From the NCBI GenBank assembly GCA_963771355.1, contig CAVYTA010000007.1:192001-256000 (forward strand): a stretch of 64,000 nt of DNA, read 5' to 3'. Shown here piece by piece: positions 47,536-60,535 of this stretch (positions are counted from its first letter, which is position 1; each line of letters begins with the position of its first letter). A model generated the notes under the pieces. The model worked only from the letters and a program-made list of their open reading frames with translations, was not told where the DNA came from and made no database searches. Source of the DNA: an uncultured Candidatus Rokubacteria bacterium (GTDB lineage Bacteria; Methylomirabilota; Methylomirabilia; Rokubacteriales; CSP1-6). A program made the translations under genes and the position numbers.

Positions 47536-48688
47536 ATGCCCACCCCATTCGCCACGCCCCATGTGTACGAGAAGCTCGGCGTCCGCTCGGTCATTCACGG
47601 CTCCGGCACCACCACGCGCTACGGCGGCTCCCGCATGCGGCCCGAGACCATCGAGGCCATGCGCGAGGCCGCGCAGGCCCACGTGAACATCGACGAGCTG
47701 AATGCGGCCGCCGGCGCCGCCATCGCCCGCCTGCTCGCACGCACCCGCCGCGCTGGTGACGGGCGGCTCCACCGCGGGCCTGGTGCTCCAGGCCGCCGCC
47801 TGCATGACCGGCGACGATCCCGCCAAGATCGCGCGGCTGCCCGACGCCGGCGGCATGCGCAACGAGTTCGTGATCCAGCGCGCGCACCGCTTTCCGTACG
47901 ACCAGGCCTATCGCGTCCCGGGCGGCGTGCTCGTCGAGATCGGGCTGGGACGGCGCACGGCCCCGCACGAGCTGGAGGCGGCCATCGGCGAACGCACCGC
48001 CGGGGTGATCTTCCTCGTCTCCCCTTTCACGAGCCCGCCCGGCATCCTGCCGTTCGAGGAGGTCTGCCGCATTGCCCACGCGCGCGGGGTGCCGGTGCTG
48101 GTGGACGCGGCCTCCATGGTGCCGCCGCGCGAGCACCTGTTCCGCTACGTCCGCGGGGGCGCCGACCTCGTCGTCTACAGCGGTGGCAAGGGCATCCGAG
48201 GTCCGCAGAGCACGGGCATCCTCGTCGGCCGGCCGGACCTCATCCGCGCCGCCATGCTGAACGCGAGCCCGAACCAGGCCATCGGCCGCGCGGCCAAGAC
48301 GTCGAAGGAAGAGATCGTGGGGCTGGTCACCGCGCTGGAGCTCTGCCTCGCCGAGGACGAGGCGGCGGAGATGGTGCAGTTCCGGGACGCCTGCGCGCGG
48401 ATCGTGGAGGAGGTGCGGGACATCCCGGGCCTGCGTGCGGTGGTGGAGCAGGACCCGGTCAACCGCGTGATCCCCCACGCCGTGATCTACTTCGAGCCGG
48501 ACTGGGCCGGCCCCAGCGGCCCGGTGGTGCGGCGCGCCCTGGCGGAGGGCGAGCCCCACATCTACGTGCAACAGGGGACCTATCAGGGCGGCTACGGGGA
48601 CGAGCTGGCGGTAGATCCCATCAACCTGCAAGCGGGGGAGGAGAAGCTCCTCGCGGCGCGGCTGCGCGAGGAGCTCACCCGCCGCTGA
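47536..48688 (+). CDS. SelA-like/DgaE-family PLP enzyme, +1 frameshift near 47737-47740
   Basis: LGVRSVIHGSGTTTRYGGS in frame 1; VLVDAA, YSGGKGIRGPQSTG, KTSKEEIVG in frame 2. Confidence 0.8.
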
Positions 48689-52261: not shown

Positions 52262-52879
52262 TCAGAGCCAGCCGCGCAGGCGGTAGTAGCACCAGGCGGC
52301 GAGCTCGATGCCCACCTCGCGCAGCAGATGCAGGCGCGCCTCGGCCCCGGCGGGCCCGCCGCCTTCCGTGTGGGCGCCGAGCACGGTGAAGCCGCGCCGC
52401 TCGAGGAGCGCCCGGGTACGGGGCATGTCGATGGGGTCGACGACCAGCAGGATGCGCTGGATGCCGCGCGGCTTCAGCAGGCCCTCGAGGAGGGCAGCCT
52501 CCTCCCGGGTGGTGTGGGCCCCGGGGGCGGGGAGCAGACTCTCGGCGTCGATCCCCAGGCCGCGGGCCAACCGCACCCGCGCATCGATCTCGTCATCGTC
52601 GCCGGTGAACACGATGAGCGGCGACAGCCCCTTCTTCTGGAGCGCGATGGCGCGGAGGGTCCGGCGCAGCGAGGCGTTGGTGAGCACCTCGTCCGCGTCC
52701 GACCCCCCGCGGCCGGGCACCACGATGGCCTGCGCGGGTCGGAGCTCGAGGGGGCCGGCCATCCAGCGGTTGAGCTCGTTGGCGAGGGGGGTGAAGCCGC
52801 CGACGACGAGCAGGAGGAGCCCGGCGGCGCCGAGCAGGCGGAGAACACGCGACCGCCTCCCGTCCTCCGCGCGTGGCAC
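52262..52879 (-). CDS. YdcF/DUF218 family protein
   Basis: AIVVPGRG, IVFTG, AHTTREEA, LREVGIEL. Confidence 0.75.
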   Translation of the reverse strand: MPRAEDGRRSRVLRLLGAAGLLLLVVGGFTPLANELNRWMAGPLELRPAQAIVVPGRGGSDADEVLTNASLRRTLRAIALQKKGLSPLIVFTGDDDEIDARVRLARGLGIDAESLLPAPGAHTTREEAALLEGLLKPRGIQRILLVVDPIDMPRTRALLERRGFTVLGAHTEGGGPAGAEARLHLLREVGIELAAWCYYRLRGWL

Positions 52880-53020
52880 GGACGGATGATGCGCCAATCC
52901 GCGCATGCATGGCAAGCGGGTCGGCGGGGGCACCGGGGGCATCGCTTGACGCGGCCGCGCTCGTGCCGGACTCTAGAGGCCCGTGACTTATTCCGCGCCG
53001 CCCGACCCGACCCGTCTCGC

Positions 53021-56000
53021 ATGACCGCGTGTCCCCGCTGCGGGCACCCGGCGCTCGCGGGGGCTCGCTTCTGCTCCGCGTGCGGGACGCCGCTGGTGGC
53101 GCCGCCCGATCCCGCGCGCTTCGGCTCGCCGGGCGCCTACACGCCCGCCCATCTCGCCGAGCGCATCCGCGGCTCGCGCGAGGCGCTGGCCGGCGAGCGC
53201 AAGCAGGTCACCGTGCTCTTCGCCGACATGCAGGGCTCGATGGAGCTGCTCGCGGACCGGGATCCCGAGGAGGCGGGCCGTATCCTCGACCAGGTCCTCG
53301 AGCAGATGATGGAAGCCGTGCACCGCTACGAGGGCACCGTGAACCAGGTGATGGGCGACGGGATCATGGCGCTGTTCGGTGCCCCGCTCGCCCACGAGGA
53401 CCATGCCGTGCGGGCCGCCTACGCGGCCCTCCGCATGCAGGAGCGCATCGGCGCCTTCGGCGACCGCATGCAGCGCGCGGCGGGGGTGCCGCTGCAGATC
53501 CGCGTGGGCATCAACTCGGGCGAGGTGATGGTGCGCGCGATCGAGAACGATCTCTCCATGTCCTATACCGCGGTGGGCCCCACCGTGCATCTCGCCGCGC
53601 GCATGGAGCAGATGGCCAAGCCCGGCTCCATCCTCGCCACCGCCGACACGGTGGCCCTGGGCGGGGGCCGCGTGGTGACGCGCTCGCTGGGCCTCATCCC
53701 GGTGCGCGGCCTTCACGCCCCGGTGGAGGTGCACGAGGTGACGGGAGCCGCCACCGCCCCCTCCCGCGCCGACGCCGCCGCCGCGCGCGGGCTCTCCCCC
53801 TTCGTGGGCCGCGACACGGAGCGCGCCGCGCTCCTGGCCGCGCTCGACGCCGCCGCGGGCGGGGGCGGCCCGGTGGTGGCGATGGTGGGCGAGGCCGGCG
53901 TGGGCAAGTCGCGTCTCGTCCGCGAGTTCACCCGGCTCGCGCGCGAGCAGGGCGCCCTGGTGCTGGAGACGGCGACCGTCTCCTACGGCCGGGCGGTCGG
54001 GCACCGCGCCGGCATCGAGCTCAACCGCCGCTTCTTCCAGATCGAGCGGGGCGACGACGAGGCCGTCGCGCGCGAGAAGATCGCCGCCGGCATGCGCGCG
54101 GTGGACCGCGGCCTCGAGGACGGCATCGCCGCCGTGCAGTGGCTGCTGGGGGTGCCGCCGGCCGCGAGTCCGTTTCTCGCCCTGGATCCCGGCGCGCGCC
54201 GGCGCCGGGCGGTGGAGGTGCTCGTTCGCCTGGTGGACGGGCTGTGCGCGCGCCAGCCGGTGGTGCTGGTGTTCGAGGATCTGCAGTGGCTGGACTCCGA
54301 GGGCGCGGAGGCGCTCGACTACATGGCCACGCACATGCCGAAGCGCGCGCTGCTGCTGGTCACTTACCGGCCCGAGCACGACGACCGGTGGCACCGGGTG
54401 CCGGGCTATGCCCGGCTGCGGCTCGAGCCTCTGGCCCCGCCGGCGGCGCAGGCGCTGCTCGCTTCGCTCCTCGGCCCCGCCGAGGACACCGGCCCCATCA
54501 GCCGTCTCGTCGCCGAGCGCGGCCGGGGCAACCCGCTCTTCCTGGAGGAATGCGTGCGGAGCCTCGCGGACACCGGCGTCCTCGCGGGCTCGCGCGGCGC
54601 CTATCGCGTGGTCCGGCCGGCGGCGACCCTGGAGGTACCCGCCAGCGTGCGCGCGGTGCTCGCCGCGCGCATCGACCGCCTGCCCGCGGAGCAGAAGCGG
54701 CTCCTGCAGGCGGCGTCGGTGGTGGGCGAGGACGTGCCGGTGCCGCTGCTCGAGGCCATCGTGGACCTGCCCGTCGAGCGCGTGCGCGCGGCGCTCGACG
54801 AGCTGCGCGGCGCCGAGCTGCTTGCCGAGGCCTCCCTCTTTCCCGACCCGGTCTACGCCTTCCGGCACGCCCTCGCTCACGACGTGGCGTACGCGAGCCT
54901 GCTCCACGAGGGCCGGCGCGCGCTCCACGCGCGCATCGTGGAGACCATCGAGCGGCTCTACGCGGGGCGGCTGGACGATCAGATCGAGCGCCTGGCCCAC
55001 CACGCCTTCACCGGAGAGCAGTGGGCGCGCGCGGTGCACTACTGCCGCGAGGCCGGCCTGCGCGCGCTCGCGCGGCTGAGCTGTCCCGAGGCGGTGGAGC
55101 GGCTCGAGCGCGCCCTGGAGGCCCTCGGCCATCTCCCCGCCTCGGAGGAGTCGCGGCGGCTCGCGGTGGACCTCCGGTTCAACCTGGGGGCGGCGCTGGT
55201 TCCGCTGGGCGCGCATGCGCGGGCTCTGGGCGTCCTCCGCGAGGCGGAGGCCCTCGCGGGGACGCTGGGCGACGAGCGGCGGCTGGCGCGCGCGCTCTCC
55301 TATCAGAGCAACATGCACTGGGAGATGGGCGACGCCGAGGCGGCCAGCGAGGCGGGCCGGCGTGCGCTCGCCATCGCGGAGCGCGCCGAGGACCTCGCGC
55401 TCCAGGTGGTGGGCAACTTCAGCCTGGCCGGCGCCACGCGCTCTCTCGGCGACTATCCGCGCGCGGCCGAGCTCCTGCGGCGGAACGTGGCCCTCCTCGA
55501 AGGCGACTTGCGCTACGAGACCTTCGGCCTCGCCGGGCTCGCGTCCGTGATGTCGCGCAGCCATCTCGCGTGGAGCCTGGCCGAGCTGGGGGAGTTCGAC
55601 GAGGCCATCGCGCGCGCGGAGGAAGGGATCCGCCTGGCGGAAGCGACGGGTCACGTGTACAGCCTGGCCTACGCCTGTCTCGGGCTGGGCGGCGCGCTCC
55701 TCCGCCGCGGCCGGCTCGGCGCCGCGCAGGGCGTGCTCGAGCGGGGTCTCGCCCTCTGCGAGGAGGTGCCGGGACTCTTCCCGCCCTTCGCCGGCGATCT
55801 CGCCCTCGTGCGCGCGCTGGGCGGCCGTGCGACGGAGGCGGTGGAGCTGGCGGCCCAGGGCGTGGCGCGAGCCGAGCGCATGGGCCGCCTCGGTCGGCTG
55901 TCCCTCATCGCCACCCACCTCGGCGAGGTGCAGCTGCTCGCCGGGCGGCTCGACGAGGCGGCCGAGCAGGGCCGGCGTGCGCTCTCCCTGGCGCGGACAC

Positions 56001-56353
56001 AGAAGGAGCGCGGCAATCAGGTGTACGCGCTGCGGCTGCTGGGCCTCGTGGCGAGCGAGACGCTGCCGGCGGACCGCGATGCCGTTGCGCGTTACGAGAG
56101 CGCCGCCCGATACTTCGACGAGGCGCTGGCCCTGGCGGAGGCGCTGGGAATGCGGCCGCTGATCGCGCGCTGCCGCCTGGGGCTGGGCCGGCTGGCGCGG
56201 CGCGCGGGCGACGCCGGGACCGCCGCGCGGCACCTCGACGCGGCGACCGCGCTGCTCCACGAGCTGGGAATGACCTACTGGCTGGAGCGCGTGGATCTCG
56301 ACCCCGCCGGCCGCGCCTCGTCCCTGGGGCCTCCCGGGGCCGCCACGAGGTGA
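53021..56353 (+). CDS. Zinc-ribbon / class III adenylate-guanylate cyclase / AAA ATPase / TPR protein
   Basis: CPRC...FCSACG; VTVLFADMQGS, GDGIMALFGAP; GEAGVGKS; FEDLQW; GNPLFLEE. Confidence 0.93.
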   Translation: MTACPRCGHPALAGARFCSACGTPLVAPPDPARFGSPGAYTPAHLAERIRGSREALAGERKQVTVLFADMQGSMELLADRDPEEAGRILDQVLEQMMEAVHRYEGTVNQVMGDGIMALFGAPLAHEDHAVRAAYAALRMQERIGAFGDRMQRAAGVPLQIRVGINSGEVMVRAIENDLSMSYTAVGPTVHLAARMEQMAKPGSILATADTVALGGGRVVTRSLGLIPVRGLHAPVEVHEVTGAATAPSRADAAAARGLSPFVGRDTERAALLAALDAAAGGGGPVVAMVGEAGVGKSRLVREFTRLAREQGALVLETATVSYGRAVGHRAGIELNRRFFQIERGDDEAVAREKIAAGMRAVDRGLEDGIAAVQWLLGVPPAASPFLALDPGARRRRAVEVLVRLVDGLCARQPVVLVFEDLQWLDSEGAEALDYMATHMPKRALLLVTYRPEHDDRWHRVPGYARLRLEPLAPPAAQALLASLLGPAEDTGPISRLVAERGRGNPLFLEECVRSLADTGVLAGSRGAYRVVRPAATLEVPASVRAVLAARIDRLPAEQKRLLQAASVVGEDVPVPLLEAIVDLPVERVRAALDELRGAELLAEASLFPDPVYAFRHALAHDVAYASLLHEGRRALHARIVETIERLYAGRLDDQIERLAHHAFTGEQWARAVHYCREAGLRALARLSCPEAVERLERALEALGHLPASEESRRLAVDLRFNLGAALVPLGAHARALGVLREAEALAGTLGDERRLARALSYQSNMHWEMGDAEAASEAGRRALAIAERAEDLALQVVGNFSLAGATRSLGDYPRAAELLRRNVALLEGDLRYETFGLAGLASVMSRSHLAWSLAELGEFDEAIARAEEGIRLAEATGHVYSLAYACLGLGGALLRRGRLGAAQGVLERGLALCEEVPGLFPPFAGDLALVRALGGRATEAVELAAQGVARAERMGRLGRLSLIATHLGEVQLLAGRLDEAAEQGRRALSLARTQKERGNQVYALRLLGLVASETLPADRDAVARYESAARYFDEALALAEALGMRPLIARCRLGLGRLARRAGDAGTAARHLDAATALLHELGMTYWLERVDLDPAGRASSLGPPGAATR

Positions 56354-56357
56354 TACC

Positions 56358-57227
56358 ATGCCGCCCATGAACGGCGCGCTCACGAGCATGGCGGAGGCCG
56401 CCCGGCTCGTCCGGAACGGCGACCGCGTGGTCTACGTCGGCTACATGCGGATGGAGCCGGTGGCGTTCTTCCACGAGCTCCTCCGCCAGCGCCGGCGGGA
56501 CCTCCACCTCGTGCTGGCTCCCAGCTCGGGGTGGGTGGCCGACATGATGATCGGCGCCGGCGCCCTGGCCGACATCGAGTTCTCGAGCCTGTCCTTCATG
56601 GAATATGGCTTCGCGCCGAACTTCCGGCGCCGAGCGGAGGCGGGGAGCCTCCGCTACCTCGAGCACTCCTGACCCGCCCTCATGAGCGCACTCCAGGCTG
56701 GAGTGATGAACGTCCCCTTCGTGCCGGTGCGCGGGCTCCTGGGCACGGACTACATGAAGGTGCGGCCGGACTTCCGTGCGGTCCCCAATCCCTACGATCC
56801 CCGTGAGGAGATCGCGCTGGTGCCCGCCATCGCGCCCGACGTCGCCGTCTTCCACGGCATCCGCGGCGACCGCCACGGCAATGTCATCACCAGCGGGGTG
56901 CTGGACGCCAAGCTCATCGCGCAGGCCTCGCGGCGCGCGGTGGCCACGGTGGAGGAAGTCTCGGACGGCGACCTCACGCTCGAGCCGCACACCGGGGTGC
57001 TCGTCCCCGGCATCCACGTCTCCGCGGTCGTGCACGCGCCGCGCGGCGCCCATCCCACCGCCTTCGAGGGCAAGTATCCGGTGGACGGCGAGCACGTGCG
57101 CGAGTACGTGAGCGCCGCCGGGAGCGAGGCCACCTTCGCCGAGTGGCTGGACCGCTACGTGTACGGGGTGCTCGACCACGCCGCGTACCTCGAGCGCGTC
57201 GGGCTCGCAGCCGCGGCGGCCCGCTGA
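56358..57227 (+). CDS. Class I CoA-transferase-like alpha subunit, probable selenoprotein (UGA at 56670-56672)
   Basis: ORFs 56358..56672 and 56682..57227 are in the same frame separated only by TGA; joined length 289 aa; ADMMIGAG, LQAG..NVPFVPVRGLLGTD, VPAIAPDVAVFH..RGDRHGN; SECIS-like hairpin follows. Confidence 0.82.
56680..56709 (+). promoter_or_regulatory. Putative bacterial SECIS element
   Basis: TCAT-gagcg-CACTCCA-GGC-TGGAGTG-ATGA; apical loop begins with G, 23 nt after UGA. Confidence 0.72.
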
Positions 57228-57241
57228 AGCCGACGGGCCGG

Positions 57242-57976
57242 ATGGCCCCCACCGCCGATGAGCCCACCCGCGCCGAGGTGATGGCGGTCGCCATCGCGCG
57301 GCGCCTGCGCGACGGCGAGACCATCGCGGTGGGCTCGGTGTCGCCCATCCCCGCCAGCGCCTGCCTTCTCGCCAAGCGGCTCCACGCCCCGGCGGCGCGC
57401 CTCATCCTCCTCGGCAGCCGCGCCCACTTCCCCTTCAATGGCGGGGTGCAGGAGTTCTACAACTACGCGGTGCGGGGACGGCTGGACGTCTTCTTCGCCA
57501 GCGGGGCGCAGATCGACGGCCACGGCAACTTCAACCTCAGCGTGATCGGGGACTACGACCGGCCCACCGTCCGGCTGCCGGGCGGGCGCGCCAACGGCAT
57601 CCTCTCCTTCGTGGCCAAGCGCCTCATCCTCTTCCGCACCGAGCACAGCCGCCGCGTCTTCGTGCCCCGGGTGGACTTCATCACCTCGCCCGGCACCACC
57701 CCGGAGGGCGTGTACCGGATCGGCGGGCTCCACGCGGTGGTGACCGACCTCTGCGTGTTCGAGTTCGATCGCGCGAAGGGCCGCCTCGAGCTGGGCACGG
57801 TGCATCCGGGGGTGACCCTGGCGGAGGTCGAGAGCCGGACCGGGTTTCCCCTGCACGCGCCCTCGCCCGTGCCCGCCTCGCCGACCCCGAGCGCGGAGGA
57901 GCTGGCGCTCCTGCGCGGGCCGGTGCGCGAGGAGCTCGGCACCTTCTACCCGGAGTTCGTCAAGCAGCAGTCTTGA
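57242..57976 (+). CDS. Class I CoA-transferase-like beta subunit (GctB-like)
   Basis: LDVFFASGAQIDGHGNFN, RLPGG, HSRRVFVPRVDFITSPG, VVTDLCVF, HPGVT. Confidence 0.9.
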   Translation: MAPTADEPTRAEVMAVAIARRLRDGETIAVGSVSPIPASACLLAKRLHAPAARLILLGSRAHFPFNGGVQEFYNYAVRGRLDVFFASGAQIDGHGNFNLSVIGDYDRPTVRLPGGRANGILSFVAKRLILFRTEHSRRVFVPRVDFITSPGTTPEGVYRIGGLHAVVTDLCVFEFDRAKGRLELGTVHPGVTLAEVESRTGFPLHAPSPVPASPTPSAEELALLRGPVREELGTFYPEFVKQQS

Positions 57977-58054
57977 CGGGAGCCTCGGAAATAGGCAATA
58001 AGTATCGGGTTGCCCCGGATCACCCATTCTGAATCGCACAGGGAGATATCGCAC

Positions 58055-60535
<2,481 letters not shown>

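Follow-up and report, generated by a model that had tools for sequence, protein, structure and literature searches.

A gene in the DNA analysed here, a stretch of 64,000 nucleotides from an uncultured Candidatus Rokubacteria bacterium (hereafter, "the window"), very probably encodes a single full-length alpha subunit that contains selenocysteine (Sec) at residue 105 and forms, with the adjacent beta subunit, a non-canonical enzyme of the CoA-transferase fold. The mechanism of decoding is known; the enzyme family is new to selenocysteine decoding. We are nearly certain that SelB would bind the loop of a hairpin downstream of the in-frame UGA and that tRNA-Sec would read the codon. Sec105, which is Cys in orthologues, is with good confidence predicted to be the catalytic residue, and the alignments suggest that it is likely used, on an acyl-CoA substrate, in place of a glutamate lost from the beta subunit.

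Translation of 56358-57227 gives 289 codons with a single internal TGA (YLEHS-U-PALMSALQAG) and a terminal TGA, so that the 289-aa frame interrupted only once, as proposed in an earlier reading made from the letters of the window (hereafter, the sequence-only reading), is borne out. That reading also anticipated that standard annotation would split the gene, and genetic code table 11 does cut the frame into open reading frames of 104 and 181 aa. Apart from the predicted Sec105, the alpha chain has no Cys residue; it has neither a resolving Cys nor a CxxU/UxxC motif. The alpha/beta pair is flanked in the window by an adenylate-cyclase-like gene and a H+-pyrophosphatase, and a promoter and terminator scan of 52500-58300 returned nothing relevant. 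The features of the locus are given in Table 1.

Table 1. Features of the alpha/beta locus, in window coordinates
Feature	Position	Strand	Evidence
Shine-Dalgarno-like GAGGTG, 5 nt 5' of the ATG; overlaps the TGA stop of the upstream gene (56351-56353)	56347..56352	+	sequence
Alpha subunit gene, 289 aa, predicted Sec105; GctA/IpdA/AibA fold, PF01144	56358..57227	+	frame, profile match, structure model
In-frame TGA, codon 105, predicted Sec105; column of IpdA Glu105 and of homolog Cys	56670..56672	+	alignments, contigs
Possible lower stem, TCAT (56680-56683) with ATGA (56706-56709); conserved in part only	56680..56709	+	pairing across relatives
SECIS-like stem-loop CACTCCA-GGC-TGGAGTG; loop GGC at 56696-56698, 23 nt past the TGA	56689..56705	+	folding, comparative
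Beta subunit gene, 244 aa, PF01144; Leu at the Glu54-beta column (about 57407-57412), then a shortened loop	57242..57976	+	profile match, alignment

The in-frame TGA is reproduced in independent data and in relatives. Contigs of two different studies (X5 and X9) span the codon, with no other letter listed, which argues against a sequencing error. A third DNA run yielded no piece over the codon, and contigs from RNA runs cover parts of the alpha and beta genes with the TGA outside them and carry no information on strand or level. TGA is found at one column in 98 non-redundant relatives with 39-100% identity. In the genome-locus rows above 41% identity, duplicates included, the codon-105 column holds TGA in 43 of 43; the 18 rows below 41% have AAC, ATG or CAC. 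For the best 80 of 204 metagenome loci, the column is TGA in 75 and TGT or TGC in five, down to 39% identity. No TAA, TAG or frameshift occurs at this column among the loci compared, and TGA is kept down to about 49% GC.

Cys is the commonest residue at the column in the 141 stop-free homologous proteins that span it (45, followed by Glu in 43 and Asn in 18), and Trp is never found. Homologs with Cys in an xxTCPA context, named in the sequence-only reading for related alpha subunits, do exist. Of the best 120 protein-database matches, 112 are fragments of 160-195 aa and the remaining eight are full-length, with Cys in all eight; the fragments in databases are often named glutaconate CoA-transferase. 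The closest named loci belong to Rokubacteria/Methylomirabilota in seven of ten cases. The Sec form probably spans several phyla, since the cluster names of beta subunits and neighbours at TGA loci carry draft-genome labels of several groups (Deferrimicrobiaceae, Chloroflexota, Nitrospinota/Entotheonellia, Desulfobaccales). The source genome itself also holds three stop-free paralogues (L016, L017 and L018, on G000:C6 and C5) whose residues at the column are Asn, His and Met. The beta Glu is retained in the first two types, and the third is part of a 715-aa frame.

A hairpin immediately 3' of the TGA, with its first loop G 23 nt away, had been described from the window sequence, and we locate it at 56689-56705. 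We scored it with our own implementation of the consensus model in section 5 of PMC13188914. The alpha-gene hairpin fits this bacterial SECIS model, as the sequence-only reading had claimed, in its loop (3 nt, GGC), spacing (23 nt from the TGA), stem length (7 bp) and energy (-8.3 kcal/mol). After duplicate removal, 138 TGA rows gave 98 genes. In 95 of these, the best hairpin of the model type starts its loop 22-23 nt past the TGA, versus none of seven Cys genes and one of 21 others, and 83 of the 98 pass the SECIS model, reaching -7.5 kcal/mol. In a comparison of 84 distinct stretches of 48 nt, pairing in the upper stem reaches 91.7%, versus 33-47% in slid controls. Four of its seven pairs change on both sides in a compensatory manner, and none of 500 shuffles reached the covariation score, a count that is not a probability because the sequences are related. 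RNAalifold recovers the upper stem unprompted.

Codon usage within the stem points the same way. The alpha gene has 16 A/T-ending sense codons, three of which fall in the hairpin (GCA111, GCT114 and GGA115), and GGA115 is its sole GGA codon. Measured against the background of the same genes, the stem positions use CTC for Leu in 97 of 97 genes (46% elsewhere), GCT for Ala in 62 of 94 (4%) and GGA for Gly in 80 of 97 (9%). All of the 40 closest genes use GGA there, and A/T is the majority at 0 of 128 other fourfold sites. The suggestion that codons ending in A or T, rare in this gene, were selected here for RNA structure thus holds up, with GCT and GGA fixed against background in relatives. One part of the stem as originally drawn fares less well: the upper 6-7 bp are conserved, but across the 84 relatives no more than 62.8% of cells in the TCAT/ATGA extension are paired (versus 91.7%), and its A-U pair is kept in 29 of 84.

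Taken by itself, the hairpin folds no better than shuffled sequences (z of -0.22 to -1.0); the support for it is therefore comparative. An Rfam search returned no SECIS family match at E values up to 10. A genome-wide scan for a TGA followed by the hairpin tip gave 127 matches, among which no other gene was convincing by eye.

The source genome has the machinery for selenocysteine. selA (555 bits) and selB (367 bits) adjoin tRNA-Sec on contig C7, and selD is on C4; three FdhA genes have a TGA at the expected motif. We also surveyed 31 TGA-bearing genomes within a 201-genome sample of the phylum and found selA in 24 of the 31 (173 of 201 in the phylum sample). Among the seven TGA-bearing genomes without selA, one (G007) has selB and tRNA-Sec, another (G003) has a partial selB match and a third (G158, 77% complete) has no such match. 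In the other four, all draft genomes (G005, G014, G016 and G054), selA, selB and tRNA-Sec were not found. selC, selA and selB are clustered, so that one missing contig would remove all three. A selD with one apparent internal TGA is present in G014, G016 and G054, and an apparent TGA-bearing fdhA in G005 and G054.

Several further observations concern these genes. The selD match of the source genome (L011, G000:C4:225335-226252) has no internal stop and may be part of a fusion, since its open frame runs to 817 aa; three relatives, unlike it, have a short selD with a TGA. Two of the FdhA copies lie near contig ends (L181 and L183; G000:C7:2068-4107 and C4:311117-312229) and are identical over 60 nt from the TGA onward, reflecting either a recent duplication or an assembly overlap. 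In the window, a SelA-like PLP protein is encoded at 47702-48688 (+), with a weak TIGR00474 match (E 1e-9) far under the cut-off; it is not the real selA, which sits elsewhere on contig C7.

Two readings would dispense with selenocysteine altogether. If the TGA were a true stop, the gene would be a pseudogene, or a split gene restarting at the ATG at 56682. Such an interpretation could appeal to the many 160-195-aa C-terminal fragments in databases and to the four TGA-bearing draft genomes in which selA, selB and tRNA-Sec were not found. However, those same four genomes carry an apparent TGA-bearing selD or fdhA, the restart ATG is present in only 38 of the 98 genes, and the conserved, covarying hairpin tracks the TGA. 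Moreover, even in relatives with as little as 39% identity or about 49% GC, the stop is in frame, coincides with the Cys column and is never anything other than TGA; we regard a true stop as very improbable. A sequencing error at the TGA, or its reading as Trp under a changed genetic code, is hardly credible: contigs of two other studies have the same letters, TGA also terminates the alpha gene and most of its relatives, and no homolog among 141 has Trp at the column. We consider error and Trp recoding refuted on these grounds. The sequence-only reading had itself named four observations that would speak against selenocysteine (another codon in the reads, homologs with Trp or another non-Cys residue and never TGA, a genome lacking the Sec machinery and an unconserved hairpin), and none of them was made.

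The decoding apparatus resembles that of FdhA-type genes with an intragenic SECIS, with which the window gene has in common the in-frame UGA, a loop of 3 nt that begins with GG and lies 23 nt downstream, a 7-bp stem with an energy of -8.3 kcal/mol, and the existence of Cys homologs and of SelA, SelB, SelC and SelD in the genome. Unlike that type, the window protein has no CxxU/UxxC motif and no other Cys, and its fold and family lie outside Table 1 of PMC13188914. This 2026 review lists 119 families, including those of Haft and Tolstoy 2025, and a CoA-transferase family is not among them; NCBIfam 20.0 has no model near cut-off for the Sec alpha family. The claim that the protein falls outside the classic selenoprotein families is upheld on both counts. 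We found no report of a Sec family of the CoA-transferase fold in PMC13188914, PMC13326102, PMC12013277, the deep-Sep supplements or literature searches, and other catalogues could bear on its novelty. The family would add a new fold to the bacterial selenoproteome, beyond the dominant thioredoxin-like redox proteins.

An AlphaFold2 model of the alpha subunit, built with residue 105 as Cys, has a pLDDT of 95.3. Its closest fold matches are GctA (Z 36.1, 1.9 A over 281 residues), IpdA (Z 35.5, 1.9 A over 278 residues) and AibA (Z 32.8), with other CoA-transferases at Z 24 or less; an ESM Atlas search gave generic CoA-transferase names only. Residue 105 is at the start of a helix and, by homology, would lie at the subunit interface. 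It corresponds to Glu105 of IpdA, which we take to be the catalytic base of IpdAB. The residue aligns with the sole E/A difference between PDB 6CO6 and 6COJ, the latter being titled as an E105A COCHEA-CoA complex.

The beta subunit was recovered at 107 of 132 loci. Its catalytic Glu is absent from all 76 Sec loci and kept in one of 13 Cys loci, 13 of 13 Asn loci and three of three His loci; the lone Cys locus with the Glu lies in an alkene-degradation cluster, outside the Sec/Cys clade. In the window, the beta subunit has Leu at the column of the catalytic Glu54 of GctB. The beta Glu is described as essential for type I transferases in PMC5380842, where its loss, together with the lack of CoA transfer by IpdAB, serves as evidence that IpdAB is no transferase. 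Because the catalytic Glu is missing from the beta subunit, the alignments indicate that the alpha/beta pair is probably not a classical CoA-transferase. The proposal of a Sec enzyme in a CoA-transferase fold stands as to fold and selenocysteine, but classical transferase activity is unlikely.

Comparison with characterised systems sharpens this picture. GctAB (PDB 1POI) and the CatIJ/PcaIJ-type 3-oxoadipate CoA-transferases offer the closest fold, the two-gene layout and the database name, but differ in having the beta Glu that all 76 Sec loci lack; at the Sec column, GctA has Gln and PcaI-type proteins have His. IpdAB, a hydrolase that cleaves the ring of COCHEA-CoA (PDB 6CO6, 6CO9, 6COJ and 6CON), shares the alpha/beta fold, the loss of beta Glu54 and the matching residue 105. 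It differs in sequence (26% identity), in having Glu where the window protein and its orthologues have Sec or Cys, in its longer beta loop and in its steroid genes, of which none lie near the window pair. The AibA/AibB 3-methylglutaconyl-CoA decarboxylase (PDB 5MZW) likewise illustrates a Gct fold repurposed after loss of the beta Glu. There, the replacing Cys is in the beta subunit (Cys56) and AibA has Gly, whereas the window pair has Leu in beta and Sec in alpha. According to PMC7756340, AibAB is a decarboxylase in which Cys replaces the beta Glu, and both characterised relatives without this Glu, IpdAB and AibAB, carry out C-C chemistry (PMC6678751 and PMC7756340).

To place the Sec form, 247 sequences were reduced to 175 by dereplication at 80%. 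In an IQ-TREE tree of 67 rows, from which the trait and hairpin columns had been dropped, 32 Sec rows and 26 Cys rows group in one clade with support of 95/97. This clade needs six changes between Sec and Cys, four of them forced by strong branches, with the root uncertain and the direction of change not readable. Nine weaker matches (35-39% identity) form a second group in another family of the same order (L199-L207, in family f4 genomes G027, G031, G033-G035 and G037-G040). TGA occupies the same column in eight of the nine and TGC in one (G034), with near-identical DNA. The stem in this group, UGCG-GGC-CGCA, has another sequence, yet likewise a 3-nt loop at 23 nt, and in the Cys copy of G034 the first loop G is changed. 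A FastTree tree places the group outside the main clade, with Cys proteins around it (0.979), and the sequences suggest that it recruited Sec separately. By eye, its beta subunit has no Glu in the region and keeps the long loop; the conserved neighbours in this second Rokubacteria group look like plain synteny.

For the reaction, our lead is the cleavage of a C-S bond in an acyl-CoA thioether, freeing a thiol. We propose it tentatively, because Cys orthologues adjoin CaiB and often sulfur-catabolism genes. A separate CaiB-type transferase would make the acyl-CoA, which the Cys/Sec enzyme would then transform. In a possible though uncertain next step, a thio-substituted acyl-CoA of the R-S-CH2-CO-SCoA type may be attacked by the selenolate at its thioether sulfur. 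Departure of the acyl moiety as an enolate would leave an Se-S-R bond on the enzyme, which an outside thiol would reduce, and the R-SH so freed could be oxidised by thiol dioxygenases in some hosts. The full scenario, in which a widespread Cys/Sec subfamily carries out selenolate C-S cleavage, the catalytic residue has moved to the other subunit and Sec was recruited at least twice with SECIS elements of the same geometry built from different codons, is rather unlikely to hold in every part.

The examined flank contains CaiB at ten of the 13 Cys loci and, at four of the 13, a thiol-dioxygenase-like gene; this sulfur context comes from Cys orthologues of two or three lineages only. In each of the seven proteobacterial plasmid loci examined, alpha, beta and CaiB stand in a row; six of them share largely one operon or are close kin. 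Three metagenome Cys loci combine the alpha/beta pair with a thiol-dioxygenase-like gene and CaiB; two of the three also carry a YfiT/DinB gene, and two have an NtaA/DmoA monooxygenase upstream. A Diaphorobacter locus has as neighbours gorA, a glutathione-binding protein, cysteine dioxygenase and 3-sulfinopropanoyl-CoA desulfinase. CaiB is near only two of 98 Sec loci, many of whose flanks are short; the neighbourhoods of Sec loci differ between lineages, with no common pathway genes found, and two thiol-dioxygenase queries of the source genome had no match. In PMC6370202, thiodipropionate cleavage in Variovorax is assigned to enoyl-CoA hydratases, not to the Cys/Sec alpha family, and that case therefore supports the kind of neighbourhood only.

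Other chemistries are compatible with a real Sec105. It could attack the thioester carbonyl, giving an acyl-selenoester in place of the classical glutamyl intermediate, as an acyl transferase or thioesterase would. The intact CoA-transferase fold, the coincidence of beta Glu loss with Cys or Sec at residue 105 and the lack of a second Cys in the chain for redox chemistry all suit this idea, and Sec is a strong nucleophile. However, a separate CaiB transferase already sits beside ten of 13 Cys loci, and the equivalent residue of IpdA presumably targets the acyl portion of its substrate and forms no CoA thioester. With IpdAB also showing no CoA transfer (PMC5380842), we judge the acyl-selenoester somewhat unlikely. 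Sec105 could instead serve as a general acid/base, like Glu105 in IpdAB, and catalyse the cleavage of a C-C bond, a decarboxylation or an elimination on an acyl-CoA, without any covalent Se adduct. The column matches that of Glu105 exactly, and Glu is the residue in 43 of 141 homologs, but at neutral pH a selenolate makes a poor base. Although the Glu-less IpdAB and AibAB do C-C chemistry (PMC6678751 and PMC7756340), the repeated exchange of Cys and Sec and the two separate Sec groups fit nucleophilic or redox use better, and acid/base catalysis seems to us quite unlikely. Two specific roles were discarded: a steroid role, as neighbour scans contained no steroid C/D-ring genes, and a role in the alkene/coenzyme M cluster, where the Cys protein falls outside the clade and its partner still has the beta Glu. 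The latter is on plasmid pNOCA01 of Nocardioides sp. JS614 (L099:7974-9715), in an alkene monooxygenase/coenzyme M cluster.

Whatever the reaction, the paired loss of the beta Glu and gain of Cys or Sec marks a large uncharacterised enzyme subfamily, and its Sec/Cys pairs are a natural test of the benefit of selenium in acyl-CoA chemistry. If C-S cleavage is true, soil Rokubacteria and several anaerobic phyla would have a route of organosulfur turnover that has gone unrecognised, and a selenoenzyme would be at work in acyl-CoA chemistry. The Cys form is in a catabolic operon of the cultured Paracoccus denitrificans PD1222, and its function is therefore open to ordinary genetics. The alpha-beta-CaiB genes there (PDEN_RS22910/22905/22900) resemble the window pair in their Glu-less beta subunit and in an alpha subunit with 39% identity and Cys at the Sec column (DATCPA); a close relative from Sagittula is inside the Sec/Cys clade. 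They differ in having Cys, no conserved hairpin and a catabolic operon around them, which the window gene lacks. This operon, on plasmid 1 (L191:9983-20762), encodes the Cys-type alpha subunit, beta, CaiB, a 2-hydroxyacid dehydrogenase, a class II aldolase, an FGGY kinase, an acetolactate-synthase-like protein, a molybdopterin oxidoreductase, a peroxidase-related protein and a rhodanese. It faces an ABC transporter and is largely conserved in several Rhodobacterales plasmids.

Some Sec loci have distinctive neighbours. Several with lower GC (L143, L153, L155, L165 and L166) adjoin corrinoid methyltransferase genes (MttB, a MetH-like fusion and RACo), which could hint at a role in anaerobic demethylation pathways. 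In one relative (L080:7596-9446), the Sec gene is preceded, at a distance of about 1.5 kb, by a gene of the SBP56 selenium-binding-protein family.
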